Source: a virus
Taxonomy: Duplodnaviria > Heunggongvirae > Uroviricota > Caudoviricetes
DNA: 64,000 nt
IMG/VR virus record: IMGVR_UViG_3300012573_000004
Direction: 5' to 3' (one strand)
Shown piece after piece: positions 26,642-52,997 of this stretch (the stretch's first letter is position 1; every line of letters begins with the position of its first letter). The notes under the pieces were generated by a model. The model did no database searches. It saw only the letters and a list, made by a program, of their open reading frames with translations, and was not told where the DNA came from. A program made the position numbers and the translations under genes.

Positions 26642-28036
26642 CTACCAACTCACTAAAGCTGAGTTGGTTTCCTGCTTCTTAGAGGATACAGTCCCCTGCA
26701 TTGCTGCAGGTTTCTGTAGGTCTACAACCCTCTCACTATGCTCATAGAAAACATAGTCCAATTGGTCCAAATAAGAGTTTTGTCCAATCAGCACAGGCGT
26801 TAATTCCCTATGTTCCATAGGTATATTATGTTCTGATAAACCAAAATCTATCATGTTTTTAGCTGCATGAATATCACGATCTTCTGTAGCACCACAGTAT
26901 TTACATACATATTCTCTTTCTTTCAAAGAGTGTTTAGTGTTTTTATCACATGAAGAACACCATTGTGTAGTAGGAGACCACTTATCCACCATAAAAGCTC
27001 TTGGATGAGCTTTCAAAAGAGATTTAACTCTACCTAGAACACTGTGATGGAGTTTTCTTCCAAAGCGCATCTTCCATGCACTCAAACTTTCATCTTGAAA
27101 GAAGACATACTCATTTTTCATCAAAAGAGAAACTATTTGTTTAGCAAGATTATCTTTCTTGTTATTAAGTTTGTCATATTCCCTGTTTAGTTTCTCCTTT
27201 GTAATGAAGTAGTTATGAGAAAGTGGAATATAAGACAAACCTTCTTGATTCTTTCTCTTTTTTGCTTGTCTATATTGTCTATCTAGTTTCCTTTGTAGTC
27301 TTTTTACCCTTTGTGGCACTTCAATAGTAGTACTTATCTTCTCACCAGTTGATAGGGTTATGTGAGTTGCAATTCCCATATCAATCCCAATAGCAGTATT
27401 AGGAATGAAATCATCTACATCTACTTGTGAGGTATAAGCTGTTATTTTAATGAAGAACCCTGATGCTTTTTTAATGAGTTTAGCATTAGCTAACTCAGCA
27501 TCTTGAGGTATTTGATGCAGTCCATAAACTTTAAAACTTCCAGGTATCTTTTGAATACTTGCTTTCTTTTCTAGAAAGTTTATTTTATAGGTAGTTTTGT
27601 ATTGCTTGAGATCAATACTTTGAACCTTGCGTGCAAATTTCAAACTTCCTACTTTATGTCCCTTTTCTTTGAGTGCTTTCAAAGAAGACAAGTTTCTAGA
27701 GATGGAAGAAACAATAGACTGTTTCAACTGAGAACCTAGATAACAAATCTTCCTATCTTCCATTTTTCCTTCCCTGTTCATCACAGGTACTGTTTTTCCA
27801 GGAATATAAGAAGTTGGTTTATCAGTGTTAAGAGCAGCATTGTATATCCATTTTGCTTCAAGAAACACCTTATCTAGCGCTTCTTTTTGCTGGAGGTTGA
27901 GTTTATCCATATCAACTTTTAGCTCATAAACTTTACATGTTTGTTGAGATCTACGCTTGCGAGTTTCTTGTCTTGTTCTCGCTATTTGTGCATTTTTCTC
28001 ATTTGCATAAACTTTCTTATTTACTATAGCTGACAT
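26642..28036 (-). CDS. tnpB: TnpB (IS605 OrfB) RuvC-like nuclease
   Basis: RuvC-I IGIDMGIATHITLSTGEK. Zinc finger CSSCDKNTKH...CKYCG. RuvC-III DRDIHAAKNMI. SD agaggtgaataataccATG. Confidence 0.8.
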   Translation of the reverse strand: MSAIVNKKVYANEKNAQIARTRQETRKRRSQQTCKVYELKVDMDKLNLQQKEALDKVFLEAKWIYNAALNTDKPTSYIPGKTVPVMNREGKMEDRKICYLGSQLKQSIVSSISRNLSSLKALKEKGHKVGSLKFARKVQSIDLKQYKTTYKINFLEKKASIQKIPGSFKVYGLHQIPQDAELANAKLIKKASGFFIKITAYTSQVDVDDFIPNTAIGIDMGIATHITLSTGEKISTTIEVPQRVKRLQRKLDRQYRQAKKRKNQEGLSYIPLSHNYFITKEKLNREYDKLNNKKDNLAKQIVSLLMKNEYVFFQDESLSAWKMRFGRKLHHSVLGRVKSLLKAHPRAFMVDKWSPTTQWCSSCDKNTKHSLKEREYVCKYCGATEDRDIHAAKNMIDFGLSEHNIPMEHRELTPVLIGQNSYLDQLDYVFYEHSERVVDLQKPAAMQGTVSSKKQETNSALVSW

Positions 28037-28114
28037 GGTATTATTCACCTCTTTTCTGATATTTTGCTATGCTCTTACTTAAAGAGTATAGCACATAAGA
28101 AAGTGATAAGTAGA

Positions 28115-28528
28115 ATGCACAAGGAATATAAATCTCTTAATAGAAACACCACAAGAATCAGGTATCATATTGAGTTGTCATTTAGATATGGATATAAAGT
28201 TGCACAAAGCATAGGAGATGACAATGTGAAAAGCATTATCAACTCAGCCGTAAGTCATTGTGAAGGTGTGAAACTTTTATCAGTGGGAATAGATAAAAAT
28301 CATGTCCATATGGTTATAGATTCACCTCCTTATTGGAGTGTTACTCAATTAGTAGATAGAATAAAACAACTTTCTACTCACAGAGCATGGATGAAGTATT
28401 TTCCTATTGTGAAACAGTTTTGTGGGAAGAAAAAAGTTTTATTTTCTGATGGATATTTTTGTGAATCTATTGGAAATGTTGAAGAAAATGTAGTAATAGA
28501 TTATGTTAAAAATCAAGGGAAGAAATAA
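28115..28528 (+). CDS. tnpA: IS200/IS605 Y1 (HuH) transposase TnpA
   Basis: HuH motif HVHMVI. Catalytic Tyr region SDGYFCESIG. Length 138 aa. Confidence 0.75.
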   Translation: MHKEYKSLNRNTTRIRYHIELSFRYGYKVAQSIGDDNVKSIINSAVSHCEGVKLLSVGIDKNHVHMVIDSPPYWSVTQLVDRIKQLSTHRAWMKYFPIVKQFCGKKKVLFSDGYFCESIGNVEENVVIDYVKNQGKK

Positions 28529-28551: not shown

Positions 28552-30114
28552 TTAAAAGACAGGTGGGCTTTCTGTGGTTGATATGGTAAATCCAAGAGTT
28601 TTATACAGGCTTCCATCAGAAACTGTATTGTCAGAAAATGTCACAATCTTTTCCAAACCATATTCTCTTGCGTAAGACATACCCTTTTTAAGAAGTTTTC
28701 CCATCCCTCCTACTACCACACAAGAGGTTACATACCTATCAAGGTAGAGGATGTTTTTATTCTTTCTCCAAGAAGACACAGCAACTAGATCACCACCTTG
28801 ATCATAGAGACCAATGTATTTACTTCCCTGTGATCTTCCTTGAATGTGGTATTTATCTAGGAAATCTCGTGCTGTAGCAAAATCCACAGAATCAGAAAAT
28901 GTATTTCTAGCATACACCTTTCTATCTTGAGATACTCCAAGTTTATGAGAAATCATAGATTCTACTATTTTTCTTCTCAACATCCAGTCATCTTCCCATA
29001 CCACAATCAACTGAATGCCTTTATCTGCACAAAGCTTCCACTTGATAATGTGCTTATCTTTGGTTTTTCCTACCTTTTCACTGTGCCAATAAAGACCATT
29101 GAACTCTATGGCCAAGTTGTGATCCGGAATATAAATATCTAACTCATGAGTTCTTAAAGCAGATCTATCAGAGGTTTTTACTCCTACTTCTTGTGGAAGT
29201 ATAGATTTAACAAAATCAGCAACTTCAGTCTCCATGGTAGATACCTTCTTGCAACAACGAGGGCATCCACTACCTCCTGTCCTGCCACTTATGATGGCTT
29301 TCCAACTGTGTCCATTCTCACATTTCCACCATACTTTTTTGGTTGATTTAGCAGCAACATCATGTGGTGTGAGAGGAAGATTCTTGCTGGTATCCCATTC
29401 TTTAGATAGTTCTGGGAAAAGAGTAGCAATGTCATTGTCTCCAGGTAATACCTTTTGCCCCACACATACTGGACATCCACTTTTATTCATTGACCTATGG
29501 TAAATAGAAGCTTTATAGCTATGATTTTTCTTTGGACATAACCACCATACTTTTTTATGTGTTCCATAACTATAAGATTCAGGTAGTAAATCATTTTTAT
29601 CATAATCCCATTCTTTTATAAGATCAGGGAATCGTGTTTTAAGATCTGTTTCTCCTACAATCACCCTGTTTCCAGAACAGTAAGGACACCCTGTTCCACC
29701 TGAAACACGAGAGGAGATTTTGGTTTCCCATTCATGCCCCCTATCACATATCCACCACACCTTCTTCCCAGAACTTTGCACTACCTCTTGAGGTTTTAAG
29801 TCATTCCTTTTATAATTCCACTGTGATGCAATTTTAGGATGAATGTATGCAAAGTCATTAAATCCTTGCAAAACTTTCTTCCCTGCACAATAAGGACAGT
29901 TTCTCCCACTTGCCCTACTTTTAATGACAGCAGCCCAACTATGACCTTTATCACATTTCCACCATGCCTTCTTATGCGATCCAGGAAGTACTTGATTAGG
30001 AGAAATGGTATTTTTATCATCATCCCATTGTTGAGCAAGATAAGGATGTAAATAGACAAGGTTATTTTTGCTTGTTACACTCCTGCTTGGTTTAGAAATG
30101 ATATCATTTTCCAT
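28552..30114 (-). CDS. Five tandem treble-clef zinc-ribbon repeats, a Vsr/PD-(D/E)xK-like endonuclease domain, and a GNAT-like C-terminus
   Basis: Five repeats of W(D/N)x(x)KN...P....GS.KK(A/V)WW.C..GH.W.A.I..R..G.GCP.C.G. Then DIYIPDHNLAIEFNGLYWHSE (Vsr/DUF559-like 'EfDG..WH'). Confidence 0.6.
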   Translation of the reverse strand: MENDIISKPSRSVTSKNNLVYLHPYLAQQWDDDKNTISPNQVLPGSHKKAWWKCDKGHSWAAVIKSRASGRNCPYCAGKKVLQGFNDFAYIHPKIASQWNYKRNDLKPQEVVQSSGKKVWWICDRGHEWETKISSRVSGGTGCPYCSGNRVIVGETDLKTRFPDLIKEWDYDKNDLLPESYSYGTHKKVWWLCPKKNHSYKASIYHRSMNKSGCPVCVGQKVLPGDNDIATLFPELSKEWDTSKNLPLTPHDVAAKSTKKVWWKCENGHSWKAIISGRTGGSGCPRCCKKVSTMETEVADFVKSILPQEVGVKTSDRSALRTHELDIYIPDHNLAIEFNGLYWHSEKVGKTKDKHIIKWKLCADKGIQLIVVWEDDWMLRRKIVESMISHKLGVSQDRKVYARNTFSDSVDFATARDFLDKYHIQGRSQGSKYIGLYDQGGDLVAVSSWRKNKNILYLDRYVTSCVVVGGMGKLLKKGMSYAREYGLEKIVTFSDNTVSDGSLYKTLGFTISTTESPPVF

Positions 30115-30277: not shown

Positions 30278-31159
30278 TTAAACACGAGAGAATTCAGCAA
30301 TGTAGTTATCATTGCTAGACTGCATACAAGTAATAAAGACAAGACGATTAGGCTTCTTCTCATTCCAAATATCTTTGTCTCGTGCAATCAGACCTTTACC
30401 AGCACGGTGAGACTTCTCAAACTTAAACTTAATTCCGCCAACCTCAATAATATCACCAGGGTTAAGCTTAGATTCTCTGCTTACAGGATCATAAAGCCAG
30501 TTTCCTGGTGCTAGTCCTGATAGTGCTCTACCATCAGGAGTGGTGTCGAGCGCATGAGCCGCCAGGTAGGACGTACCTTGTGAGGTCTTATCATACTTCA
30601 CACCACGGTTTTTAATCCAGAACACAGAAGTAAAATTTGTTGGCTCAATGGTTCCGTTTTTTGGCTCCACCAAGGATCCCAATGCAAAATCAGCATTCAA
30701 GGAAGGGATCTTTACTCTTTTACCAGTATTGGAAATCTGTTTCATTTCCTTAGCACTAGGCTTCCTATCAGTCTGCGCTGGGGTGCTTCCCCTGCGATGA
30801 GTATTCTTGTCCCTTTTATTCTTGTTCTTATTATCATTGTGAGGAGATGAGCTGCTATCTCCTCGTCCTGGAAGATCTGAGTGATTAACTGGGTTTCCTA
30901 GAAGATCCACATTCTGGTTAGGATCGTCATCTTTATCTTGTCTTCCTACAGGTGCATCTTTTACTGCTGTTAGCTGTGAAGAATCTTCAGGCACTGTCAC
31001 AGCATTAAATTGGGCACCTGCATTATTAGATACCTCTTGACCCTTATCTGACTTCATAAACATTGTTACTGATCCAACAATAACCAAAATAGCCACCATG
31101 GCTACAGCAATGATGATTGCCAGAGTCTTTTTCTCTTTTGCTCCAATTTTTGATGACAT
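30278..31159 (-). CDS. Membrane-anchored sortase-family transpeptidase (class E/F-like)
   Basis: N-terminal TM LAIIIAVAMVAILVIVGSV. Catalytic His in TSYLAAHAL. Cys in LVFITCMQS. Arg in NYIAEFSRV near the C-terminus. Confidence 0.6.
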   Translation of the reverse strand: MSSKIGAKEKKTLAIIIAVAMVAILVIVGSVTMFMKSDKGQEVSNNAGAQFNAVTVPEDSSQLTAVKDAPVGRQDKDDDPNQNVDLLGNPVNHSDLPGRGDSSSSPHNDNKNKNKRDKNTHRRGSTPAQTDRKPSAKEMKQISNTGKRVKIPSLNADFALGSLVEPKNGTIEPTNFTSVFWIKNRGVKYDKTSQGTSYLAAHALDTTPDGRALSGLAPGNWLYDPVSRESKLNPGDIIEVGGIKFKFEKSHRAGKGLIARDKDIWNEKKPNRLVFITCMQSSNDNYIAEFSRV

Positions 31160-31384
31160 TATACTTTGTGTCCCTCTCTTAGTGTTGTCCTTGTGCTTAT
31201 AAGTATTATACTTTATTTCCTATTATCTTCTCATATTAAGAAGCGTTTACACAAAACTACATTTCTCTCTCAATACAAAAAGATGATCTTCCATACCTGT
31301 ATAGAGTACAACATAGAATCAAGAAAAAGAAAAAGCCACAAAGAAAAGTCATCCTTTGTGGCTTTTTATACAAGCTATCTTTCC

Positions 31385-32503
31385 TTAGTTGTTATCAGAA
31401 GATACTTCCTTGTTGTTATTGTCATCAATGGAAAGAGACTTCTTTAGCTCATTGAGAACAGTGGTGGAAGAAACAGCTAGAGTAGAAAGAGTCTTAGTGA
31501 TATCCTTGTCATCTCCTACAATGGTGAGGTTGGAGTTGGAAAGAGACTTTCCTAGAGACTCCATGATTTCTGGAAGGTACTTAATCATCTCAGCTTGCAA
31601 GGTAACAGAGTTGGAAGAAGACAGTGCTTCTGCTTCCAGCTTGGTAGCCTTTGCCTTGGTTTCTGCAGCAATAGTATCTCGTTTAGATTCTGCTTCTGCT
31701 AACTTGACAATATCAGCTTCATACTCAGCTTGCTTAAGCTCAGCTTCAGCCTGACGGAGCTTGGTTTGTTCTCGTGTCACAGAAAGCTTCTCACGTGCTT
31801 CTGCTAATGGACCTGATTGTTCTGCTTCAGCTCGTGCCTTAGCGGTTTCTACAGTGTTCTGTGAGGTCTTGAGATCAGTTTCTTTCTGGTTTTCAGAAAT
31901 ATCCCTATCAGCTTCTAGCTGTGCTCTACGAATTCGTGCTTGGGAAGCTGCATCTTCCCGTGCTGCATTTTCTGCCACACGAATAAGCTCAGGCTTGGAA
32001 AGGTTCTGGATATGTCCATTATCATCTGTGACACCATTGATCTGGAAAGAATCAATCTTCCAGCCAAATTCTGACATTTTCACTGATACTTCTTCCATGA
32101 CAGAGACAGCTAAAGCCATGCGATCATTGATGATTTGCTCTACTGACAATCCACCAATGAGACCTCGTGTTGCACCCTCAAATACATCAGCTGCTGCTTT
32201 TTCAATGTCATCATCACTATAGTTAAGGAATTTTGCTGCAGCCCTGGTAATACCTTCAATAGAACGTTCTACAGAAAAGACCACAGTAGCAGAGACTTTG
32301 ATCTCCACATTGTCCTTTGTCTGTGCTAGAAGTTTAAAGCTAACATTGTGTGCATCTGTGCGAAAACGCTCCACCCTGTGAAGCAGTGGAACAACCCACG
32401 TTCCTGAACCTACCACTACCTTGAATGGTTGCTTAGGATCTCTTTTGCCAAATCCACCTGTGATGATAATGGCTTCTGTAGCCTTTGGAGTGATAAAAAA
32501 CAT
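31385..32503 (-). CDS. Flotillin-like SPFH/band-7 protein (YqiK/FloT-like)
   Basis: SPFH domain (VVPLLHRVERFRTDAHNVSF...). Long Ala/Glu-rich coiled coil (AEAELKQAEYEADIVKLAEAESK). SD aaaggaaaacaATG. Confidence 0.7.
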   Translation of the reverse strand: MFFITPKATEAIIITGGFGKRDPKQPFKVVVGSGTWVVPLLHRVERFRTDAHNVSFKLLAQTKDNVEIKVSATVVFSVERSIEGITRAAAKFLNYSDDDIEKAAADVFEGATRGLIGGLSVEQIINDRMALAVSVMEEVSVKMSEFGWKIDSFQINGVTDDNGHIQNLSKPELIRVAENAAREDAASQARIRRAQLEADRDISENQKETDLKTSQNTVETAKARAEAEQSGPLAEAREKLSVTREQTKLRQAEAELKQAEYEADIVKLAEAESKRDTIAAETKAKATKLEAEALSSSNSVTLQAEMIKYLPEIMESLGKSLSNSNLTIVGDDKDITKTLSTLAVSSTTVLNELKKSLSIDDNNNKEVSSDNN

Positions 32504-32752
32504 TGTTTTCCTTTCTTTTATGATATATTTTTCATCAGTTAAATACATAGTACTGGATATAGACTGAAAGATCAACAAAAACACATAAAAGCATAATGAA
32601 ATAGTAATGTGGTATTATATGCTTAAAGACTTATATGTGATTGTAATCACATATGCAATATGGTCTTGTTTTTCAGTATAATAGCAGTCTAGTTATAATA
32701 AACCTTAGAAAAAACCATTGAATAAATAGTACTTGCAGAAAGGGATACACCT

Positions 32753-33211
32753 ATGAACTCTCCTAGTGCATCGCTGCGCACTCTTGCTGCAAAGGGTCTA
32801 GTTCCTTTGTCTTTAGTTGCAGCTCTTGTTACTGGAAACCCTACTGTTTCTGCACAAGAAACCACCTCTTATAATAAAAATTACAGCTTTTCCCAAGAGG
32901 AAAAACCACAGGACAAAAAGCCTTCTTATTCTTTTGGAGCTAAACTCTTTGCTCCTTCTTCTTTTGATGGCCATGCTGGAATGTGGGTAGGTAGAAATCT
33001 ATCTACTACATCATCTAAAGATATGAACATACCTCAGCTTCATGAGTATTTTGTCTCCAATGAAGGTGTCTTGTATAAAACCACTATTACTTCTGGAAAA
33101 AACACTATAGATGAAAAACACACTAGTGTTCTTCCTGAAAAGGTATCACAAAGCCTGAGAGAAAAAATGCCTTCTATGCCTGCTGAACTGGTGTTTCAGC
33201 ACTTTTCTTAA
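32753..33211 (+). CDS. Secreted hypothetical protein
   Basis: Signal peptide LAAKGLVPLSLVAALVTGNPTVSAQE. Confidence 0.5.
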   Translation: MNSPSASLRTLAAKGLVPLSLVAALVTGNPTVSAQETTSYNKNYSFSQEEKPQDKKPSYSFGAKLFAPSSFDGHAGMWVGRNLSTTSSKDMNIPQLHEYFVSNEGVLYKTTITSGKNTIDEKHTSVLPEKVSQSLREKMPSMPAELVFQHFS

Positions 33212-33300
33212 AACATAAAAGACACTATGCTACCTCTTTTTAGGGGTAGCATTTTTTTATCTCTTGACAATGTTTTTTCTTCTATGTCATACTATATTCA

Positions 33301-33651
33301 GTGCTTCACACAGCAGGGAAGAATCTTGCTGGATTTAAAAGCACTATGAACTTTGTACAACAACACACTATATCAAGGAGACACCTCGTGTTTAGCTTTA
33401 CTACCCCTGGAATGGAAGAGACTTCTAACGCTATGGAAGACAATCTTGTTGCTTCTGGGGATGACATCACCACCATTGATGATTTTGACTTTGAAGATAT
33501 GGAAGATTCATATGATGATTTTGATGATGTAGAAGAAAATCCATATGAGGAAGAGTACGGTGATCTCAGTGATGAATGGCTAGATGATTGCTATGAAGAC
33601 AACCTTCGCATGAAGTTTTCTCGCAGCGCTCGAAACAATGGTGATTGGTGA
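33301..33651 (+). CDS. Acidic hypothetical protein (start uncertain)
   Basis: ORF with a D/E-rich segment DDFDFEDMEDSYDDFDDVEENPYEEEYGD. Confidence 0.4.
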   Translation: MLHTAGKNLAGFKSTMNFVQQHTISRRHLVFSFTTPGMEETSNAMEDNLVASGDDITTIDDFDFEDMEDSYDDFDDVEENPYEEEYGDLSDEWLDDCYEDNLRMKFSRSARNNGDW

Positions 33652-33657
33652 TATATA

Positions 33658-34362
33658 ATGGCTGGTAAGCCGTCATATAATAAAAAGGATAATGACTATG
33701 TAGATATGCAGCTTTTTACCAAGGAGCATTTTTATCTTTTCCCTGTGATTAAATATGATTACACAGGTGATGATGGTCATATCATTGCAGTATCTTCAGA
33801 AGTTTTTGATGGTGGTCTATCCAACGCTATTGATTACACCCAAGGAAAAGCTCTAGAAGAACAGCAGGTGCAAAAATACACACTGATTACTATTTTACCT
33901 GCTGTTGCTATGGCTTCCTTTATGATTTTATCTGGAGGTATTTTCAACTACATCATTGCTACTGCTTTGATGGTCTCTATCTTTTTGTCTATTAGAAAGT
34001 TCCTTAATGCTGAAGCTTTAGTTACTGTGATGAAAAAGTCTTTTAGAGACAACCGCATTATGGATAAATCTACTGATCTATACAAGATAGCAACAGTAAA
34101 AGAAATACAATCTTTTAACTGTCCCATGGATGTTTCTGAAAATCTCCATCAGATTCCACGCAAAGTATGGGAAGAAGCTGGCTTGGGAACATATTTTGCT
34201 CCTCAAGATATGTTTTCCATCATTGTTTTAATCGCTCTATCTTCCCCTGTAACACACAATGAAGCTGTAAAAATAGTAGAAGATATGATTTATGCCACTG
34301 AAGAAGAAAAAATGAAATGCATTGACAAGCTTTTAGCGCTTATCATGCAGAAAGTAGATTAA
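33658..34362 (+). CDS. Membrane protein (two TM helices)
   Basis: ORF. Terminator follows. Confidence 0.5.
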   Translation: MAGKPSYNKKDNDYVDMQLFTKEHFYLFPVIKYDYTGDDGHIIAVSSEVFDGGLSNAIDYTQGKALEEQQVQKYTLITILPAVAMASFMILSGGIFNYIIATALMVSIFLSIRKFLNAEALVTVMKKSFRDNRIMDKSTDLYKIATVKEIQSFNCPMDVSENLHQIPRKVWEEAGLGTYFAPQDMFSIIVLIALSSPVTHNEAVKIVEDMIYATEEEKMKCIDKLLALIMQKVD

Positions 34363-34410
34363 AAAAACACCCTCTTGAAGAAAAATATTTCTTCAAGAGG
34401 GTGTTTCTTA
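34361..34410. terminator. Bidirectional terminator (acaccctcttgaag/cttcaagagggtgt, A-run plus T-run) between convergent genes
   Basis: Read in the sequence. Confidence 0.8.
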
Positions 34411-34419
34411 TTTATCTAG

Positions 34420-35922
34420 TTAAAAGAATATCTTTTTCACTTTGTCTAGGAAAGATACATTAACCTTTCCACCTGTATTAACTTTAGGTCCTACATTAGT
34501 AGAAATGTCTTCTTTCTTCACAGGTTCAGGTTTATTTATGTCCCTTGATACTTTTTCCTTATGAAAAGTATCATTGTCTTCTTCATCTTCTGTATCATTT
34601 ACTGATGCTGAGAGATCATCTCGTGAAATTTCTCCTTCAGCTGGTTGTGGGGGTTGTATGGTATAGCCATCATCACTATCCTTGCTGGTAGAGGTTGTGG
34701 GTTGGTCAGAATCTGTGTGGCTATCCTCTGTAGATGAAGGAAATGTAGTCTGGCTGGGAGTGGCACTATCTGCATGAGAAGACACTACAGAAGGGGATTC
34801 TTTCTTTGCATTATCATCATCTCCCTGTGGTGGAACTACTGATGGTGATGAGTCAGGAGAAGGATTATTATCTCCTGAGGAAGGCTTATCTTTGTCACCT
34901 GAGGAGGGCTTATCTTTATCTCCTGGAGAAGGCTTGTTATCTCCTGGTGAAGGTTTATCTTTGTCACCTGAGGAAGGCTTATCTTTGTCTCCTGGAGAAG
35001 GCTTGTTATCTCCTGGGGATGGTTTATTATCATCAGAGGATGGTTTATCTTTGTCATCAGGGGAGGGCTTGTTGTCATTTGTATCTTTGTCACCAATGGT
35101 ATTGACAAATACCTCTTTCCCTACTGTCTTTTCAATCCACTCTTTATACTCAGAAACAGGCATGTACATAGTCTTCTTATTTCCTACTGGATCCACACCT
35201 TTTGGAGTTGCTCCAAAGGAAAGAACACCATAGAGTGTATCATTGATAACAAATGGTCCTCCAGAATCCCCTACTGTAGAAATTCCTTTTTTGAAAATAA
35301 CAGGATTAACGTTCATTCCTGGATTAAACTCATCATCTTTTTCTGTCTTATAAGACATTGTTCCATCCAGAGTGTTAAGTTTTTCCAATTTATCCTTTTT
35401 ACCTGGTCCCCAGCCATATCCTTTTCCTTCAGTGTTTTTATTGATGACACCTTCTTGCAGCTTCATAGGGGTAATATTGCTTGCAGGTTTATCAAGGTGA
35501 AATAACGCCATGTCCCTATCTGAAGAGTAGGTCTTTACATTGTCTACTTTATAAACAGGCTGTGATTTGGCACTAGTTCCAAAAGAAATATCTGAATACC
35601 ACTTATCTATTCCACCTTTAGGAATACAATGCTGTGCTGTTAACACCCACTGTGGTGCAACCAAAGTTCCAGAACAAGTCAGAGTATGAATTTTAGGTTT
35701 TTTATCATCTATATCTTCCTTATTTTTCATAAAAATTCGTGCTACTGCACTAGTGGTATCATTATCTGGTGCATCTGTAGAAGAAACCATTGCTGATGCT
35801 GGTGCTATAGAAGCTGTTAGTGCAATAGCAGCTACAGTAGAAGCTGTGTATATTGTGTGTTGTGAAGGCATAAAGAGTAGTCCTTTTTCTAGATGTTGTG
35901 CATTTCTATGCAAATTTTTCAC
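34420..35922 (-). CDS. Secreted trypsin-like serine protease with a (D/N)KPSPGDKDKPSSGD repeat linker and a C-terminal TGG tag (GPKVNTGGKVNVSFLDKVKKIFF)
   Basis: Signal peptide. His motif TAQHC. Ser motif GDSGGPFV. Tandem-repeat linker. Conserved C-terminal tag. Confidence 0.8.
   Translation of the reverse strand: MKNLHRNAQHLEKGLLFMPSQHTIYTASTVAAIALTASIAPASAMVSSTDAPDNDTTSAVARIFMKNKEDIDDKKPKIHTLTCSGTLVAPQWVLTAQHCIPKGGIDKWYSDISFGTSAKSQPVYKVDNVKTYSSDRDMALFHLDKPASNITPMKLQEGVINKNTEGKGYGWGPGKKDKLEKLNTLDGTMSYKTEKDDEFNPGMNVNPVIFKKGISTVGDSGGPFVINDTLYGVLSFGATPKGVDPVGNKKTMYMPVSEYKEWIEKTVGKEVFVNTIGDKDTNDNKPSPDDKDKPSSDDNKPSPGDNKPSPGDKDKPSSGDKDKPSPGDNKPSPGDKDKPSSGDKDKPSSGDNNPSPDSSPSVVPPQGDDDNAKKESPSVVSSHADSATPSQTTFPSSTEDSHTDSDQPTTSTSKDSDDGYTIQPPQPAEGEISRDDLSASVNDTEDEEDNDTFHKEKVSRDINKPEPVKKEDISTNVGPKVNTGGKVNVSFLDKVKKIFF
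34842..35097. repeat. In-frame tandem repeat (about 21-24 bp units) encoding KPSPGD(N/K)DKPSSGD
   Basis: Repeated DNA. Antisense frames give the spurious ORFs 34806..35105, 34836..35108 and 34892..35233. Confidence 0.7.
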
Positions 35923-36033
35923 ATAGTTTTTCCTATTCTAGGATACATTTTTATCCTTGTTTTTGCTGGGATGAGAAAAACCCCTGAATCCTTATAACAG
36001 GAAACAGAGGTTTGATTCTATAAAACTACAACA

Positions 36034-37314
36034 TTAAAAGAGTTGTTTTACCTTTGCAAAAAATGATTTACCTTGTACCTTTCCACCAGTCTTTACTGTT
36101 GGTCCTACAGCTTCCTCTTCTGCAGAATCATTGACACTATTTCTGTCTTCTGTGCTGTCTACTGTAGAACCACCTTCAGTGGTATTTCCTGCAGTAGCAC
36201 TTCCTGTAGTGGTACTTCCTGCAGCAGTGTTTCCTGCGGCAGTGTTCCCTGTGGTAGTAACCCCTGGAACAGTTCCATTGCCAACAACAACAGCTTCATC
36301 AGTATCTTCAGGAGGGTTAATCACTGTTGCATCAGTTACCTTGGAGTCATCTACTTGTGTCCCTTTATTTGTGGAAGACTTATGAGAAGTTGATGGTTTT
36401 GCTGTTTGTGATGTAGAAGGTTGGGAAGACTCATCCTCACTAGGAGTGTCTCCATTGGAGGTGTCTTCCTTAGTGGGAACTTCTGCATCAACAGTTCCAC
36501 CATCTTCTTGTGGTTGTGCATTACCAGAATCTTCCCCTGATGCAGTTACAAAACTATCATTTTGTTCAATGGTTTTTTCAATCCATTCTTTGTATTGAGC
36601 TACAGGCATATATAGTCCATGAGATATTTCTCCCTTGTCAGGAATAGTTGCCATAGACAAAACGCCATATACTGTGTCATCTATAATAAATGGAGATCCA
36701 GAGTCACCCTTTGCAGAATGGCCACCATCAAAGATTACCTCATTAGTGTCCATGTCTTTAAATGGTCCACCATGAACAGCTTCTGGAAGCATTGTTCCAT
36801 TGAGGGTATTGAGAGCTTTGAGTCGTGGTTCATCTATAGGCTTTCCCCATCCATAAGCTTGTCCCTGCTTTTCTTCTTGTATAACACTATCCCAAAGCTT
36901 CAACGGGGTGATATTTCTTACTGGTTTATCTAAATGGAATAGAGCCATATCATCTTGATCAGAGTGCATTTTAACATCATCTATTTTGTACTCTTGTCCA
37001 TCATCAGTGGTCCCAAAAGTAGCAACCCCAGAATACTTATCTAGTCCTTCTTTAACACAGTGTGCAGCAGAAAGAATCCATTGTGGAGCAATCAAAGTTC
37101 CTGTACAAGATGTAACATGCACAATCCCACTACCATTGGCTTGTACTGCATCTATTTCAGCTTTATCACTTAGCTGGATGTGTGTTATAGCATTAGTAGT
37201 ATCATTAGCTTCTGCATTAGTATCACTGACTAGAGCTTGTGCAGGAATGGCCATAGTTGTCAATGCTAATGCTGCTGTTGCAGAAGCTGTAGCCATTTTT
37301 GTTTTATAACCCAT
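36034..37314 (-). CDS. Secreted trypsin-like serine protease with a Thr/Ala/Gly-rich linker and a C-terminal TGG tag (GPTVKTGGKVQGKSFFAKVKQLF)
   Basis: Signal peptide. His motif SAAHC. Ser motif GDSGSPFI. Tag. Confidence 0.8.
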   Translation of the reverse strand: MGYKTKMATASATAALALTTMAIPAQALVSDTNAEANDTTNAITHIQLSDKAEIDAVQANGSGIVHVTSCTGTLIAPQWILSAAHCVKEGLDKYSGVATFGTTDDGQEYKIDDVKMHSDQDDMALFHLDKPVRNITPLKLWDSVIQEEKQGQAYGWGKPIDEPRLKALNTLNGTMLPEAVHGGPFKDMDTNEVIFDGGHSAKGDSGSPFIIDDTVYGVLSMATIPDKGEISHGLYMPVAQYKEWIEKTIEQNDSFVTASGEDSGNAQPQEDGGTVDAEVPTKEDTSNGDTPSEDESSQPSTSQTAKPSTSHKSSTNKGTQVDDSKVTDATVINPPEDTDEAVVVGNGTVPGVTTTGNTAAGNTAAGSTTTGSATAGNTTEGGSTVDSTEDRNSVNDSAEEEAVGPTVKTGGKVQGKSFFAKVKQLF

Positions 37315-37399
37315 GAAAAAAATCCTTCTTTCTCTTATTTTCTATCTCTCTTGTAAAAAATCATGAACTCATGATTGGCAACATGTCTATTGTAGATGT

Positions 37400-38800
37400 T
37401 TACTGTGTTGCATTGTCATAACTGGATGCATGAGCGTTGTGGGTATCTACATCATGGTCATGAGTAACATCTTTTCTCACAGTGCTTTTGTTTCCATAAG
37501 CACTATCTCGTGCAACTTTTTTATGAGAAGAGTTTTTGATTGTCTTGAGACGTTTGTGCAAGCTATCAAATCTCTTACCACTTTTCTTTTCTATTTTGGA
37601 GATTACCTTTTCAGCCAAGGATGCATCAGTTCCTGCCTGAGCATGTGATTGTGCTCCACCTTGTGCTGTTGCATGTGCTGTGTTTTTACCACCAATAGAT
37701 GAAGCATGTGCTGAAGATCGTGATTTGTGTCCCTTATGTGCATGATGAGATGGTTTCTTATTTCCCTTCTTTGCATGATGAGAAGGTTTTTTCCCTGCTG
37801 CTTTAGACTTATGGTGTCCAGATGCAGGCTGAGGAGAAGATACTAGTTTCTCACCTGTAGTCTCGTTAATCCATTTGCCATAAGGAGAAACAAGAGCATA
37901 AAGCACAGTATCAGTAGACTTTTGCCCATCATCACCATGAACAACACCCTGAGACAAAATTCCATAAACTTTTCCATTAATAATAAATGGAGATCCAGAA
38001 TCACCATAGGTAGACTGTCCAGAGTTTAATGTAGCACGCTGAGTTTTCATACCTGGTACAGCACTGTCAGTTTCTACCTTGGGTTGAATCTGTGCAATAT
38101 CAGCAGTGAGATTTTCTGCTTCTGCAGGCACGCCTTGATCATCTACATCACCCCATCCATACACAGAACCAGGGGTAGGAGATTTGACTATGCGGGAAGA
38201 AATCTTTAATGGTTGTGCAGCAGAAGGAGTACTAAGATGAAGAAGGGAAAGATCTACCTTGTCATTGTTGACAACACTATCTACCTCAATTTTATCTGTA
38301 GATTCTGGTGTTTCTCCCAAAGTTACTTCAGAAAATGCTTCTTGTTTATCTACACAGTGTTTTGCTGTAAGAATCCACTCAGGAGCAATGAGAACACCTG
38401 TACAAATAGTAGAACCATATCCTTGACCTGAAGAAATATCATCAGAGTCAGAGGAATCATCAGAAGAATCATCAGTAGAATCTTCCTTATTGTCCTCATC
38501 TTTTACTTCATCAGAATCTTCTTTGTTATCATCATTGTTGCTTGAATCTTCTGAAGATTTTTCATCTGAAGATGTTTCATCTTCTTCATTGGCATAGTTT
38601 TCTGTTTCTTTATCCCCAGTACCAGATTCCTTATTGCTATCTTCTGGGAATGTTGTTTCAACTCTAGCAATAGCACCAACATTTTCTTGATTTTTAGGCT
38701 GAGAGCCATCAACAATAGCAAAAGCAGGTGAAGCAACAACACTTGTTGTTACCACACCTGCACATAGTGCTGCTACATATCTAGACATGTGCTTAGTCAT
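37400..38800 (-). CDS. Secreted trypsin-like serine protease with an acidic N-terminal low-complexity region and a basic His/Lys-rich C-terminal region
   Basis: Signal peptide. His motif TAKHC. Ser motif GDSGSPFI. No TGG tag. Confidence 0.8.
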   Translation of the reverse strand: MTKHMSRYVAALCAGVVTTSVVASPAFAIVDGSQPKNQENVGAIARVETTFPEDSNKESGTGDKETENYANEEDETSSDEKSSEDSSNNDDNKEDSDEVKDEDNKEDSTDDSSDDSSDSDDISSGQGYGSTICTGVLIAPEWILTAKHCVDKQEAFSEVTLGETPESTDKIEVDSVVNNDKVDLSLLHLSTPSAAQPLKISSRIVKSPTPGSVYGWGDVDDQGVPAEAENLTADIAQIQPKVETDSAVPGMKTQRATLNSGQSTYGDSGSPFIINGKVYGILSQGVVHGDDGQKSTDTVLYALVSPYGKWINETTGEKLVSSPQPASGHHKSKAAGKKPSHHAKKGNKKPSHHAHKGHKSRSSAHASSIGGKNTAHATAQGGAQSHAQAGTDASLAEKVISKIEKKSGKRFDSLHKRLKTIKNSSHKKVARDSAYGNKSTVRKDVTHDHDVDTHNAHASSYDNATQ

Positions 38801-38901
38801 GGGTAAATCACACCTTCATGGATAGAAAAACATTTTTCCTTGATATTTTAGCAGGTTGAAGGTGTGATTAGAGTTGCCTTGCTTTTTGCTGTGTATCTTT
38901 T

Positions 38902-39204
38902 CTACAAAGCTGCATATTCTGCAGCAGAACACAACATCTTTCCCCATTGTGCCTGGCTGCTATCTTTATCCTCTTCACCACGGAAGACTTTCCTTCCTAG
39001 CTTATATGCTTCAGCAGAGCTAAAAGAAGCTACCAGTTCTTCTGATGACAGCAATTCAACACTATTGGAGTGTGCCTTGGCCACTACGCTTTTACCTTCT
39101 AGAGACCATGTACAGGTATCACCAATAGATACAGTAGCCTTAATGCGGGGAACATCCCCATTTCTGTAATAGTTCTTCTTGCTCTTATTATGAGTCATTG
39201 TCAT
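38902..39204 (-). CDS. Small hypothetical protein
   Basis: ORF only. Confidence 0.3.
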   Translation of the reverse strand: MTMTHNKSKKNYYRNGDVPRIKATVSIGDTCTWSLEGKSVVAKAHSNSVELLSSEELVASFSSAEAYKLGRKVFRGEEDKDSSQAQWGKMLCSAAEYAAL

Positions 39205-39382
39205 TTCTCCTTTTATTACATGATATATATTGTGCTTGTTGATATTACAGAATAAACAATACCTGATTCCACTTATAAATGCAAGATTGTTCTATTTTTG
39301 CATAACGTAAAACGAGCTGTGAGCTTGTTATTATGATATATGACCTTTTCACATTATAAAAAGATTGGACGTTTAAATACCC

Positions 39383-42073
39383 ATGAAGAAAAACACTATT
39401 TTAGCTTGTACTGCTTTGTCACTTATTCTCCCCTGTGTCCCTGCTCATGCTGCTAATGATATTTACAATATATCACCAGCTTCCACCCCACAGCAGATCA
39501 AAGATTCTACCTCTTCCCAGGTAATGACTATTCATGATAGAGAACGATCTTCAGATCTCACCACCATTTGGATAGCACCAAGGAAAGATTGCAATGATAA
39601 AGCTGATGGTAGCAAAGACAACCCAGTATGTGATGTGTCACAGGCTAGCTCTATTCTTAACAATCTTTACCAACAGGGAAAAGCACGTGGTGATGTAGAC
39701 ATCAGATTCAAAACAGGAAAAGGTGTTGTCTATCAACCTGAAAATGGAAAAAGGTTTGGTGATTTTACCTTCGCTCCTACAGCAGGACATGTAGTGAGAT
39801 TTATTCCTGATTGGTACAACAACATTGATGACTTGAAGAAAATCAATGCTGATAATAGAATCAATGTTAAAGGATATCCAGCTTCACAATCTAAAAATAA
39901 TGACTCTGGGGTAGGTTTATCTATTTCTCCTAAATCTAATAAGGGAGGAACATATCAAATCAGTGGATTCCATTTTGACAACCTGGTAAACCCATTGAAA
40001 GTCATCACTCCTCAAGTAACCAAAGACAAAATATCCAATAGCTCTGATCCAGAAGATATCTATAAAAACATTAGACATTCCCAGAATGCACCTATAGGGA
40101 ACATGCTTATTTCCAATAACGTTTTTGATCATGTAGGTGATGCATACACAGCTGGTGGTGGAAACTACATCTCAGGTGCAATGAGGGTGTGGGGTGCTAC
40201 CAACATGCTTATCAAAGACAACACTTTTATCAATGGAAAAGCAACTTCTAAAAACACTTCTACTTCCCATGTTATCTACAACTATATGACATCAGGAACA
40301 GTCTATGAAGGAAATACCTTCAAAAATAATAACTACTCTTTGATTAGAGCACGCTTGAGCAATGATGATATTATTACAGGAAATAACTTTTCTACATCTA
40401 AGAGTCTTTTTGGAAAAGACAAGGAAGTGATTGGAACATGGTATCAAGGATACCTCTATGGTAAAGGAGGAACAAGAGACAACAAATCTTATGCAGAATG
40501 TAAAGGTGATGGACCTTTTGAGTTCAACAACACCTTTACAGGAAGATACTCCACTGTCTTAAGAAACCTTAAACAGCAACCTTATTGCACAGATAAAAAA
40601 CGCATCACAGCACCCATGTTTCTAGAAGGAATACAAACTGGAGATAAAGAATATTCCCTTCGTTGGGGGGATGCTGATACTAATGGTGATGGAGTGAAAA
40701 ACTACCATGTCTATGTAGGAAAAGCTAATAAGTATGGAACTCCTACTTCTGATGTACCTGTCAAAGTAAAAACCACTCCTTCTTCTGTGCATGAAGCCAC
40801 AATTGATAAATCTATGTTTGACAAAGCTGGTATCAAGCCAGGTGATAACTTCCACTATTATGTGGTAGCAGAATCTACATCTGGATGGTTGTCTTCTAGA
40901 AACCAACTGAAAACATCAGCATTCCTTGATAAAACCTATCAAGGAAGAGACAACTATACTGTAGCTAGAGTGGAATCATGGGATAGAATCACTGATGGTA
41001 AAAAGCCAGAGAAATCCACTTTTAACTATGATCTTGTTTCACACAAGGTATCACCTAGCTATAAGAGTGCAAAAGTAAAACCAGGAGACAAAGCAACACA
41101 GTATGTGTCCCTTTCCAAGGTTCCTGCTTATACTACATTCTCATTGAAGGATTCCACATTTCCTAAAAAGGTATCTATAGATCCACGCACAGGAAAAATC
41201 ACTGCTGACACTGCAAAAGTAAAACCTGGAAAATATACAATAGATGTTGATGTGCAATATGGTGATTGGTCTCATGACACTGCAACATTCAACCTTGAAG
41301 TAGAAGAAGAAACAGTTGACAAGCCTTCTACTGATAAGCCAACCACCAGTACCAGCAAGAAGCCAACCACCAGTACTAGTAAAAAGCCAACCACCAGTAC
41401 TAGTGAAAAACCAACTTCTACTGACAAGCCAACCACCAGTACTAGTGAAAAACCAACCACCAGTACTAGTGAAAAACCAACTTCTACTGACAAGCCAACC
41501 ACCAGTACTAGTAAAAAGCCAACCACCAGTACTAGTAAAAAGCCAACCACCAGTACTAGTAAAAAGCCAACCACCAGTACTAGTGAAAAACCAACTTCTA
41601 CTGACAAGCCAACCACCAGTACTAGTGAAAAACCAACTTCTACTGACAAGCCAACCACCAGCACATCTAGTGACATTTCCAAGCCATCTAGCTCCAATGA
41701 TGTAACAACTAGCAAGAAGCCAACAACTTCTTCCAACAAGAAGACTGCTTCTAGCACTGTAGTTTCTCCTACAGCACAACCTTCTCCAGTAGATAAGGGA
41801 AGCTCTCATCACCCATCACTATGGGAGAAAATAAAGTCTGTCTTTTCTCCACATAAAGAAGATCAATCTTCTTCTAATAACCAAGTAAAAACCCCTTATC
41901 ATGCAGTCAATGCAGAAAATAGTGAAAGCAACGCAAGAGACAGTCATGACTACCACCCTGGTGATGCAAGCAATGATGCAGATACAGGAGAAGGGAAAGT
42001 AGGTCCAGAGGTAAACACTGGTGGAAAGGTGGATAGATCCTTCCTAGATAAGGTTGTATCCATTGTGAAATAG
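39383..42073 (+). CDS. Large secreted right-handed beta-helix (pectin-lyase-fold-like) surface protein with TSTS(K/E)KP tandem repeats and a C-terminal TGG tag (GPEVNTGGKVDRSFLDKVVSIVK)
   Basis: Signal peptide ILACTALSLILPCVPAHA. Parallel beta-helix repeats (NNVFDHVGD...GNTFKNNNYSLIRARLSNDDIITGNNFS). Thr/Ser/Pro repeats. Tag. Confidence 0.7.
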   Translation: MKKNTILACTALSLILPCVPAHAANDIYNISPASTPQQIKDSTSSQVMTIHDRERSSDLTTIWIAPRKDCNDKADGSKDNPVCDVSQASSILNNLYQQGKARGDVDIRFKTGKGVVYQPENGKRFGDFTFAPTAGHVVRFIPDWYNNIDDLKKINADNRINVKGYPASQSKNNDSGVGLSISPKSNKGGTYQISGFHFDNLVNPLKVITPQVTKDKISNSSDPEDIYKNIRHSQNAPIGNMLISNNVFDHVGDAYTAGGGNYISGAMRVWGATNMLIKDNTFINGKATSKNTSTSHVIYNYMTSGTVYEGNTFKNNNYSLIRARLSNDDIITGNNFSTSKSLFGKDKEVIGTWYQGYLYGKGGTRDNKSYAECKGDGPFEFNNTFTGRYSTVLRNLKQQPYCTDKKRITAPMFLEGIQTGDKEYSLRWGDADTNGDGVKNYHVYVGKANKYGTPTSDVPVKVKTTPSSVHEATIDKSMFDKAGIKPGDNFHYYVVAESTSGWLSSRNQLKTSAFLDKTYQGRDNYTVARVESWDRITDGKKPEKSTFNYDLVSHKVSPSYKSAKVKPGDKATQYVSLSKVPAYTTFSLKDSTFPKKVSIDPRTGKITADTAKVKPGKYTIDVDVQYGDWSHDTATFNLEVEEETVDKPSTDKPTTSTSKKPTTSTSKKPTTSTSEKPTSTDKPTTSTSEKPTTSTSEKPTSTDKPTTSTSKKPTTSTSKKPTTSTSKKPTTSTSEKPTSTDKPTTSTSEKPTSTDKPTTSTSSDISKPSSSNDVTTSKKPTTSSNKKTASSTVVSPTAQPSPVDKGSSHHPSLWEKIKSVFSPHKEDQSSSNNQVKTPYHAVNAENSESNARDSHDYHPGDASNDADTGEGKVGPEVNTGGKVDRSFLDKVVSIVK
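41316..41660. repeat. In-frame tandem repeat (27/33-bp units) encoding KPTTSTS(K/E)KPTSTD
   Basis: Repeated DNA. Explains the spurious antisense ORFs 41141..41812, 41272..41757 and 41316..41705. Confidence 0.75.
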
Positions 42074-48151: not shown

Positions 48152-49135
48152 CTACCACTGTCCATAGATTTCAGAATGTGCTCTGATATTCATGTTTCCA
48201 GAAATAATACCTCCATGGCAAACTGTATAATCTAGAACATGAACGTTTTCACATACCATGCTATCTCCTTGGATTGTACAGTGTCCATAAATATGTGAAG
48301 TGCCACACACCTGAGCGTTATCTTTTACTACAGCATTGCCATAGATATGAGATTGTCCATAACACAGTGCTTCCCCTGATACTTCTGCATGTCCATAGAC
48401 AACACTGTTGTTATAGATTTCAGCGCTTCCCTTAATCACACAATGACCATAAGCTTTAGCTTCATCTGATAGACAAGCATGACCAGAAACATGACAATAT
48501 CCTTTAAGCTGAACATTGTCTACAACAATAGAAGAACCATCAACTCGCGCATAGTCTGAAACTACAACATCTCCACAAACATGAGCATTGTTTCCTACTT
48601 GAGCATCATCTTTTACCTGTGCCTTTCCATAGATACAAGCTTTTCCACAAAGATAAGCATAACCATAGATATCAGCACTTCCACTAACTTTCACATTGTC
48701 TCTAACAATAGCCCTTTGATGCACTTGAGCATTATCAAAAACTTGACTGTCATCTCTAATGATTGCACTGCTATAGACATGAGCATTGCCATATACTTGT
48801 GCATTTCCTAGAACAAAAGATTTGCCTGAAACATGAGCTTTATCATACACCTGTGCATTGTTTTTGATAGTTGCATAATCTTTTATTACTGCATTTCCAT
48901 ATACTTGTGCAGTGTCTTTTGCACAGCTAGATCCAGAAAGAACAGCATTGCCATATACCTTAGCATTATCAAAAACCCATGCGTTATCAGAAAGGTTATG
49001 TGGTGATTCTACAAAACCTCCTTTATCTCCTTGAGATACACCCTGATCAGGAATATCTTTGAGTGCTTGAATCCTGTGTAGGGTGTGTCCTGAGACAACA
49101 ATGGTGTCATGGGTAAGTCTAAAATAGGTATCCAT
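48152..49135 (-). CDS. Beta-solenoid repeat protein built from ~10-residue units ([DN]-x-A-x-V-[YFC]-G-[NK]-A-x-V), function unknown
   Basis: At least 25 consecutive degenerate repeats (NAKVYGNAVL, TAQVYGNAVI, NAQVYDKAHV, NAQVYGNAHV...). The same repeats are visible at DNA level. Confidence 0.6.
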   Translation of the reverse strand: MDTYFRLTHDTIVVSGHTLHRIQALKDIPDQGVSQGDKGGFVESPHNLSDNAWVFDNAKVYGNAVLSGSSCAKDTAQVYGNAVIKDYATIKNNAQVYDKAHVSGKSFVLGNAQVYGNAHVYSSAIIRDDSQVFDNAQVHQRAIVRDNVKVSGSADIYGYAYLCGKACIYGKAQVKDDAQVGNNAHVCGDVVVSDYARVDGSSIVVDNVQLKGYCHVSGHACLSDEAKAYGHCVIKGSAEIYNNSVVYGHAEVSGEALCYGQSHIYGNAVVKDNAQVCGTSHIYGHCTIQGDSMVCENVHVLDYTVCHGGIISGNMNIRAHSEIYGQW

Positions 49136-52920: not shown

Positions 52921-52923
52921 CTG

Positions 52924-52997
52924 CGCTTCTGACGGGACTCGAACCCGCGACCTCCGCCGTGACAGGGCGGCGCGCTAACCGGCTGCGCCACAGAAGC
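52924..52997 (-). tRNA. tRNA-Asp (anticodon GTC). Notably GC-rich.
   Basis: Reverse complement GCTTCTGTGGCGCAGCCGGTTAGCGCGCCGCCCTGTCACGGCGGAGGTCGCGGGTTCGAGTCCCGTCAGAAGCG. Anticodon loop CTGTCAC. Confidence 0.85.

Follow-up and report, generated by a model that had tools for sequence, protein, structure and literature searches.

Why should four unrelated secreted proteins encoded on one stretch of viral DNA finish in nearly the same short tail, and does that tail have anything to do with a sortase-like gene lying in their midst? The question is raised by the Caudoviricetes record IMGVR_UViG_3300012573_000004, of which a stretch of 64,000 nucleotides (hereafter the window) was analysed here. 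The gene of the putative sortase occupies positions 30278-31159 on the minus strand. The tail, which we call the tag, was noticed in an original prediction made from the letters of the window, and was there taken for a new sorting signal tied to the neighbouring sortase gene and so for a new sortase specificity. Our analysis, in which the coupling of tag and enzyme was followed into distant lineages, supports that proposal: the tail probably serves a dedicated sortase, encoded on the element, as a sorting signal of the cell-wall type. The enzyme is of a known kind; what is new is its specificity and the architecture of its signal, and no new kind of system is involved.

The shared tag and its coupling to the enzyme gene

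The tag reads GPxV(N/K)TGG, is followed by exactly 15 residues and forms the C-terminus of four open reading frames (ORFs) of the window. A six-frame scan for TGG no more than 60 residues from a stop, in ORFs of at least 40 amino acids (aa), returned five matches only, at 34420-35922(-), 36034-37314(-), 39383-42073(+), 60888-62714(-) and 62917-63876(-). These are the five ORFs of the original prediction, each exactly where it had been placed, and the common tail on the first four was confirmed by the same scan. The pattern GP.V[NK]TGG is observed four times in the six-frame translation, compared to an expectation, calculated from residue frequencies, of 5.8e-5. At residues identical between tails, only about one third to one half of the codons are also identical; since the codons mostly differ at shared residues, the similarity of the tags is kept at the protein level and does not reflect a recently copied DNA cassette.

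The four carriers are unrelated proteins: by their Pfam domains two are trypsin-like proteases, while the third has a RibLong and the fourth a SpaA domain. All four have N-termini that look, by eye, like signal peptides. The first is a secreted trypsin-like protease with a Pro/Ser/Asp-rich repeat linker (34420-35922, minus strand; Pfam Trypsin, E 2.9e-23), 483 aa long if the start annotated in related contigs is used, and its tag, GPKVNTGGKVNVSFLDKVKKIFF plus the stop, spans 34420-34491(-). An orthologue at the related locus L003 has kept the motif while its linker has diverged. The second carrier, also a secreted trypsin-like protease (36034-37314, minus strand; Pfam Trypsin, E 1.5e-25), ends in GPTVKTGGKVQGKSFFAKVKQLF and a stop at 36034-36105(-). 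The third is a secreted protein of 896 aa with a RibLong domain (Pfam, E 8e-14) and a KPTTSTS-type repeat linker (39383-42073, plus strand), its tag GPEVNTGGKVDRSFLDKVVSIVK and stop lying at 42002-42073(+). The fourth, secreted and of 608 aa, combines a SpaA (prealbumin-like) domain (Pfam, E 4.4e-10) with a PDTPD repeat linker (60888-62714, minus strand) and ends in GPEVNTGGNITLSFWDKVKGIFS and a stop at 60888-60959(-). The tag-derived peptide VGPKVNTGGKVN is a candidate substrate of the enzyme.

The same association of tag and enzyme recurs well beyond the window, where the four tagged genes share 64 kb with the enzyme gene and the nearest of them is 3.3 kb away from it. Close to an enzyme 50% identical to that of the window (L016/L017), a trypsin-like protease and a cutinase end in VGPKVNTGG plus 16-18 residues, both within 10 kb; around an enzyme only 28% identical (L140), secreted proteins on both flanks end in GPAVHTGG plus 18-19 residues. 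A different setting is provided by a pilus operon on metagenome contigs of 47% guanine-plus-cytosine (GC) content (L005/L012). This operon encodes an LPATG tip pilin, an LPVTG shaft pilin and a class C sortase, and closes with a small pilin-like protein, in which GGPKVITGG precedes a membrane helix and RxxxRRDD; the next gene encodes a member of the enzyme family, 40% identical to that of the window.

Chromosomal examples were sought by scanning reference genomes for a DNA pattern encoding GPxVNTGGxV; the matches were mostly due to chance, and the four real ones belong to Corynebacterium wankanglinii, Microbacterium mangrovi and Nocardioides sp. Iso805N. The tagged gene of Nocardioides lies directly upstream of that of the enzyme, and its product has GPAVNTGG before a membrane helix and a basic, Arg-rich tail. 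Three further isolates show the same arrangement of motif, membrane helix and Arg-rich tail upstream of the enzyme, namely Microbacterium gorillae (AGPHVDTGG), Arthrobacter bambusae (PGATVETGG) and Agreia sp. (AGPSVATGG), and in these three the coordinates of the called genes have the tagged gene abutting or overlapping that of the enzyme. Microbacterium mangrovi has three tagged proteins, at two loci, each with a membrane helix and then a basic tail after the motif: two, covered by the domain scans, are thioester/T-Q-ester adhesins, and the third is cut by the end of the locus.

This coupling was assessed quantitatively in a survey of 79 metagenome loci, 62 of which included enough upstream DNA. 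A signal consisting of motif, membrane helix and basic tail lies directly upstream of the enzyme gene at 36 of the 62, compared to 4 of some 2,840 other ORF ends in the same loci, and several further loci have variant signals that the survey thresholds missed. Pooled, the cases give the motif G(-5), P/A(-4), x, V(-2), x, T, G, G, numbering back from the Thr, and it sits where LPXTG sits in a classical signal, around 10-20 residues before the membrane helix. G(-5) is present in 44 of 44 cases; this position was outside the search pattern of the loci survey, the genome-derived entries having come from a pattern that did specify G-P. The motif, and its tight genomic coupling to the enzyme family, are thus computational observations: G-P/A-x-V-x-T-G-G stands beside homologues of the enzyme in distant lineages, and so the tail does occur in other genomes with this sortase family. 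The shared core x-(N/K)-T-G-G, as first proposed, has to be replaced by this family-wide motif. As a background control, the pattern GPxVNTGG was also run on viral contigs, where its 44 matches were all chance, and a word-indexed protein search with the tail alignment brought up one fragment only (P0042).

The fifth match of the scan does not conform. It is an Rv1815-like serine protease (62917-63876, minus strand; NCBIfam Rv1815_serprot, E 2.5e-12, under the curated cut-off) ending in TPPKTGG and a further 41 residues, which include a hydrophobic helix and a weakly basic end. The best 19-residue hydrophobicity of that helix is 0.85, as in true membrane anchors, and TPPKTGG, having neither G(-5) nor V(-2), is LPXTG-like. 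Its inclusion as a fifth member of the group has therefore been dropped: the protein is probably the substrate of a different (host) sortase, and its membership in the system described here is doubtful.

Three minor observations concern the carriers and their neighbourhood. The linkers before the tags are long low-complexity tandem repeats (34900-35230 and 41270-41760), with the units DKDKPSSGD/NKPSPGD in the protease and KPTTSTS(E/K) in the RibLong protein, and because of them long ORFs that are spurious appear in other frames and on the complementary strand. An orthologue of the SpaA-domain protein on a 379-kb contig (L142, around 12918-12941) has the tag AGLEVNTGG, with Leu in place of the otherwise invariant Pro(-4), an allele that is either a tolerated variant or an assembly error. 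Finally, a third secreted trypsin-like protease of the same gene row (37400-38800, minus strand) is without a tag and ends in a long, highly basic region rich in His, Lys and Ser, which may be a different retention device for a paralogous enzyme.

The enzyme and its relation to class F sortases

The gene at 30278-31159(-) encodes a divergent class-F-like sortase of 293 aa, in which a membrane helix at the N-terminus is joined through a disordered linker to the catalytic β-barrel (approximately residues 135-293), where His202, Cys278 and Asn285 are found. Structure prediction yields the eight-stranded β-barrel of sortases, in which His202 and Cys278 are positioned at the ends of predicted strands 196-203 and 272-279, respectively, and both residues are invariant in 30 diverse family members. 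A profile made from these 30 sequences reaches Listeria monocytogenes SrtA (PDB code 5hu4) with an E value of 9.4e-4, aligning LVFITC of the enzyme with ITLITC of SrtA. The sortase identity of the protein is based on this predicted structure together with the profile match, and, having a predicted sortase fold and an invariant His and Cys, it is not an obvious pseudo-sortase, a possibility that had been raised as a potential refutation.

Other routes to the same identification were silent. Pfam Sortase (PF04203) does not match the window enzyme at E <= 0.01, nor the family member P0040 or the Nocardioides homologue at E <= 0.1, and the NCBIfam model of class F sortases, NF033748, does not match the window enzyme either. 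Nothing was found among PDB sequences with a profile of close relatives, and an hhalign comparison to Staphylococcus aureus SrtA was not significant.

A HMMER search of 1.84 billion representative proteins retrieved 308 relatives at E <= 0.001, a small and discrete family in which the 41 nearest homologues of the window enzyme are all metagenomic and unannotated. Among the proteins retrieved are P0057, P0123 and other homologues listed by NCBI, P0123 being named 'class F sortase'. The same name is given by NCBI to the Nocardioides sp. Iso805N homologue (hhalign probability 99.7%, E 3.6e-26, 36% identity over 135 columns) and to its relatives in Microbacterium, Humibacter, Leifsonia, Curtobacterium, Clavibacter, Agreia, Arthrobacter and Williamsia. 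By its profile similarity to proteins of that name, the window enzyme is a divergent relative of the class F sortases. The Nocardioides homologue scores 13.4 bits with NF033748, for which the cut-off is 166, and a precomputed PF04203 match is present in 4 of the 120 homologues of the Nocardioides enzyme listed; the naming by NCBI presumably derives from another source of evidence.

The likeness to class F sortases extends to the N-terminal membrane anchor, the β-barrel, the His and the Cys of a 'TC' pair, the sequence S/D-N-x-V-V in the last strand and a distribution in Actinomycetota. The difference lies in the signal, the characterised class F enzyme using LPXTG (PMC8225981) whereas this clade is coupled to G-P/A-x-V-x-T-G-G. 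That enzyme, SrtF of Cutibacterium (Propionibacterium) acnes, is the only characterised class F member and processes LPXTG as sortase A does (PMC8225981). The class has been recognised for over ten years; for its other enzymes, substrates and roles are reported as unknown (PMC13251363), and a 2026 study in which all four class F sortases of one actinomycete were deleted saw no phenotype. The link to class F and the motif together constitute the new specificity; the unusual part is the anchor-less tail on a phage-like element of up to 379 kb.

A motif directly upstream of one clade's genes in many genera makes the function of the enzyme directly testable, and it flags dozens of surface proteins that are at present named only by their domains. 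On the fullest reading, put forward tentatively in the last section, the motif would identify the long-unknown substrates of this class F clade across Microbacteriaceae, Micrococcaceae and Nocardioidaceae, and the sortase/tag pair would be orthogonal to LPXTG and useful for protein ligation.

More canonical class-F-like sortases, around 30% identical to the clade studied, were seen at five loci (L217, L219, L220, L221 and L222). The gene upstream of each encodes a C-terminal membrane helix and an ARRR tail preceded by a different motif, (E/S)VPAG(V/I/G), and other class F clades may each have an adjacent substrate and signal of their own. As a further observation on the enzyme itself, residues of approximately 70-91 (APVGRxD...VD-[LM]-x-G-N-x-V) are conserved throughout the family, D85 being nearly invariant and G88 invariant. 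The segment lies N-terminal to the catalytic domain and is predicted at a local distance difference test score (pLDDT) of 80-92 although the rest of the linker is disordered; like the lids or N-terminal appendages of other sortase classes, it may rest against the catalytic domain.

Tail architecture and the proposed processing of the tag

Chromosomal members of the family have the motif inside a textbook three-part sorting signal of motif, helix and basic tail. No more than 15-19 residues come after TGG in the window, in the low-GC elements related to it and on one Corynebacterium chromosome; those of the giant elements end in a short helix of the form S-F-[LFW]-x-K-[VI]-x-x-[IL]-F. The best 15-residue mean hydrophobicity is -0.08 to 0.23 for the window tails and up to 0.38 across 12 short tails, figures that may be compared to 0.70-0.85 for the best 19 residues of true anchors. 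By the evidence of their sequences, the short tails cannot span a membrane. The AlphaFold2 (AF2) model has a terminal helix of nine residues, FLDKVKKIF, at a pLDDT of around 75, that is, with moderate confidence.

Comparison with known signals shows where the tag departs from them. Like the LPXTG signal of sortases A, C and E, it is C-terminal on Sec-exported proteins and has a T-G core preceded by Pro, and in chromosomal members a hydrophobic helix and basic tail follow the motif. It differs in P(-4), V(-2), the invariant G(-5) and the GG after T: the Pro is two positions further from the Thr than in L-P-x-T-G, and Val occupies the Pro position. The tags of the giant elements differ additionally in having 15-19 non-spanning residues in place of helix and basic tail. 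Signals of the sortase B type (NPQTN; QVPTGV) share with the present system a dedicated sortase beside few substrates and a motif other than LPXTG. The QVPTGV class (TIGR03065), used by pilus-associated class B sortases, also has Val two residues before the Thr.

None of these families, as modelled, accounts for the tag. When the five C-terminal 40-60-mers of the window were searched against Pfam and NCBIfam, which hold models of LPXTG, PEP-CTERM, GlyGly-CTERM, PGF-CTERM, MYXO-CTERM and other signals, only unrelated noise was obtained at E <= 10; the claim that the tail falls outside the described sorting-signal families has thus held for both collections. The chromosomal tagged signals are matched by no NCBIfam or Pfam anchor model either, and NCBI names the substrates by their domains only. 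The motif strings occur in no relevant paper of the literature searched, a library that is incomplete, so that an earlier description elsewhere is possible.

The reading favoured here, in which the tail is the sorting signal of the dedicated sortase, can be set out by analogy with what is established for sortases. The four proteins would be exported by Sec through their N-terminal signal peptides, after which the membrane-anchored enzyme (Cys278/His202) would recognise G-P-x-V-(N/K)-T-G-G. Cleavage by Cys278 would take place after the Thr and pass through a thioacyl intermediate, as in all studied sortases, and the substrate would then be transferred to an amine, most likely that of a host peptidoglycan precursor. 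The outcome would be a covalent attachment of proteases and adhesin-like proteins to the envelope of the host cell. In the giant elements the tail of approximately 15-19 residues, with its short helix, would stand in for the retention module, the helix perhaps keeping the precursor in contact with the membrane surface, or with the enzyme itself, until processing can take place.

Several results weigh against this reading. The first is the lack of a membrane-spanning segment in the short tails: classical systems need such a segment for retention and anchoring, as Schneewind 1992 is reported in PMC10924467. The second concerns the catalytic residues. The fold, His and Cys of the sortase originally predicted have stood, but the protein goes unrecognised by Pfam and NCBIfam, and R292, the Arg near its C-terminus, is not conserved. 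Opposite the canonical catalytic Arg, in the profile alignment to 5hu4, is the nearly invariant Asn285, and the enzyme consequently lacks the His-Cys-Arg triad; with Asn at this position, transpeptidase chemistry is not to be taken for granted. Three further points bear on the coupling. Around 40% of the surveyed chromosomal loci have no adjacent signal under the thresholds used, and for the lineage of enzyme P0031 (loci L009-L011) no tagged gene was found within 10 kb on either side. In the cultured species Corynebacterium wankanglinii (CP061031.1; L128, 4567-6357) a secreted hypothetical protein of 596 aa ends in the short anchor-less tag GPVVNTGGAVQESFWTKIVNLFR, and no family member was found in this species by the strict-pattern scan of reference genomes, which also missed the Nocardioides gene. 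The C. wankanglinii protein shares only linker and tag with the window protein (BLASTP E 1e-8, at the C-terminus). Its gene adjoins restriction-enzyme remnants.

With regard to the missing Arg, the more canonical class-F-like sequences of the metagenome survey also have Asn at this position, in the sequence S-N-V-V. Arg272 was considered as a substitute catalytic Arg and ruled out, because it varies across the family.

The explanation that survives best beside the favoured one, which we regard as unlikely and yet as a serious variant, accepts that the enzyme recognises the tag and makes of it a processing/release enzyme or a protein-protein ligase, not a wall-anchoring transpeptidase. Cleavage after the Thr would then be followed by hydrolysis, freeing proteases and cutinases from a membrane-tethered precursor, or by joining to another protein, as with the pilus sortases. 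The variant stays serious because of the Asn in place of the catalytic Arg and because the cargo consists largely of hydrolases, which may need to diffuse; it also fits with the weak retention to be expected from a short tail and with the family member in the pilus operon of L005, the substrate of which is pilin-like. On the other hand, chromosomal substrates have the full classical retention module and belong to wall-anchored adhesin types, with thioester, T-Q ester and SpaA domains. Nor is the Asn peculiar to this clade, as just described, and the characterised class F enzyme processes LPXTG as sortase A does (PMC8225981).

Less probable again, and in our view improbable, is a tail that attaches the protein non-covalently, through a short helix resting on the surface of the membrane as in Escherichia coli PBP5/6, with GPxVNTGG a mere hinge and the adjacency of the sortase coincidental. 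The resemblance to the PBP5/6 anchors is that of an exported enzyme ending in a short helix, one face of which is, plausibly in the case of the tag, hydrophobic; such an anchor would suit the nine-residue helix that AF2 places at the extreme C-terminus, the hydrophobic moments of 0.38-0.69 at low mean hydrophobicity, and the tagged protein of C. wankanglinii, where no family member was detected. The PBP5/6 anchors, however, have no conserved cleavage-type motif before the helix and no link to a sortase, and the tag helix is only about nine residues long. The hydrophobic moments do not exceed those of shuffles of the same residues (p 0.03-0.44), so that the amphipathic tail of the original prediction is plausible but statistically indistinguishable from shuffled sequence. 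Moreover, the motif is better conserved than the terminal helix itself, and in many genera the octapeptide precedes ordinary membrane helices beside homologous enzymes, a context in which a hinge for a surface helix would make no sense.

Least probable of all is that the tags are processed by a housekeeping sortase of the host (class E or A) and that the element enzyme has other substrates: a T-G core is indeed common to LPXTG and LAXTG, and the PPKTGG protein of the window resembles a housekeeping-sortase substrate, but Pro(-4) and Val(-2), against Leu(-3) and Pro/Ala(-2), put the tag in a register unlike that of LPXTG/LAXTG, the strict adjacency to this enzyme family would be left unexplained, and in L005 a single operon encodes two different sortases alongside both the LPATG/LPVTG pilins and the GPKVITGG protein.

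On the fullest and tentative reading of the next section, a mobile element or virus would use a signal that is invisible to the annotation pipelines applied to its host. By the textbook rule, no sortase signal can do without a membrane helix and a basic tail, and the anchor-less form challenges this.

The element, its host and neighbouring genes

The window has a GC content of approximately 38% and comes from metagenome contigs 214-379 kb long (ERZ26880571 NODE_2, ERZ1031149 NODE_2 and ERZ27289771 k141_5510). Megablast comparison to plasmid and phage records gave no nucleotide match to the window, and tblastn against phages with two of its proteins, the enzyme and the rIIA-like protein, gave no match. 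A huge phage or phage-like element is suggested by its rIIA and rIIB genes and by the 214-379 kb of the contigs; no capsid, terminase or other structural gene was seen. The rIIA homologue (5043-7610, plus strand) matches phrog_612 with an E value of 9e-24 and has a GHKL ATPase domain, and the rIIB homologue (7822-8688, plus strand) matches phrog_609 with an E value of 2e-30; the T4-type rIIA/rIIB pair are lysis-inhibition proteins. Homing endonucleases and a phage-type helicase are also encoded in the window, and PNKP, RecA-like, SSB and YqaJ genes in related contigs.

The host is suggested by gene content to be an actinobacterium, possibly a Corynebacterium. This suggestion is derived from the Rv1815-like proteases, from the cutinase, Rpf-type transglycosylase and DUF732 genes of related elements, and from the tagged Corynebacterium protein. 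Taken at its fullest, the picture is of a phage-like giant element (214-379 kb) of human-associated Actinomycetota whose own Arg-less class-F-type sortase, acting on hydrolases and adhesin-like cargo through an anchor-less signal, would covalently redecorate the host envelope; this whole we put forward tentatively, as a proposition whose chances fall slightly short of even. The occurrence of the anchor-less signal on a huge phage-like element, alongside proteases, cutinases and proteins of the adhesin type, suggests an ability of mobile elements to rewrite the surface of their host.

Inocles (PMC12340149) offer a parallel in being elements of hundreds of kb from human-associated metagenomes that have their own sortase and sorted surface proteins. 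They have average GC contents of 32% or 24%, oral Streptococcus hosts, a sortase A recognisable by Pfam, and LPXTG-like proteins with a C-terminal membrane helix (PMC12340149). The window differs in its GC content, its actinobacterial-type genes and its T4-type rIIA/rIIB genes. Identification of the window as an Inocle is unsupported, GC content, host-type genes and kind of sortase all being different, a judgement made without Inocle sequences to hand.

Next to the enzyme gene is a flotillin gene, the product of which has Band_7 and Flot domains. The neighbour pointed out in the original prediction is therefore real in the window, but the two genes are adjacent only among close relatives, and the flotillin has been ruled out as a part of the system. 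At L003 the flotillin-side genes are separated from the sortase region by an inserted TnpA/TnpB unit, which indicates that such insertions are recent and mobile. The window itself has at least four TnpB/Cas12f-like (OrfB_IS605) genes, as well as IS200-type Y1 transposase genes, in its 64 kb; these IS200/IS605 genes are located at 759-2174, 26642-28048, 49880-51346 and 54827-56623, all on the minus strand, and at 28064-28528 and 51450-51845 on the plus strand.

An OatA-like acyltransferase (Acyl_transf_3 plus SGNH) is encoded at 22356-24593(-), and a gene of the same kind is found at 7402-9639 of L009, where it adjoins the sortase homologue and is accompanied by DsbA-like, Rpf-like transglycosylase and LytR_cpsA_psr genes. 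It follows that the complement of cell-envelope genes on these elements is a broader one. Directly beside the sortase gene of the window, at 28552-30114(-), lies the gene of a 520-aa protein with four DUF4379 treble-clef zinc-finger repeats, which has matches to PHROG families of HNH/homing endonucleases at E 2e-78; at L009 a protein of 791 aa with a weak DUF4379 match is encoded some 5 kb from the enzyme gene.

Six tRNA genes are present, all on the minus strand: Ile-TAT (412-484), Arg-CCT (536-610), Arg-TCT (2919-2992), Thr-TGT (19221-19296), Asp-GTC (52923-52997) and Asn-GTT (58355-58427). Scattered tRNAs are typical of large phages and giant elements, where they supplement the decoding of AT-rich codons by the host. 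A further item of phage-like content is a hexapeptide/β-solenoid repeat protein of 327 aa, encoded at 48152-49135(-), which matches phrog_5070, a family of unknown function, with an E value of 5e-87.

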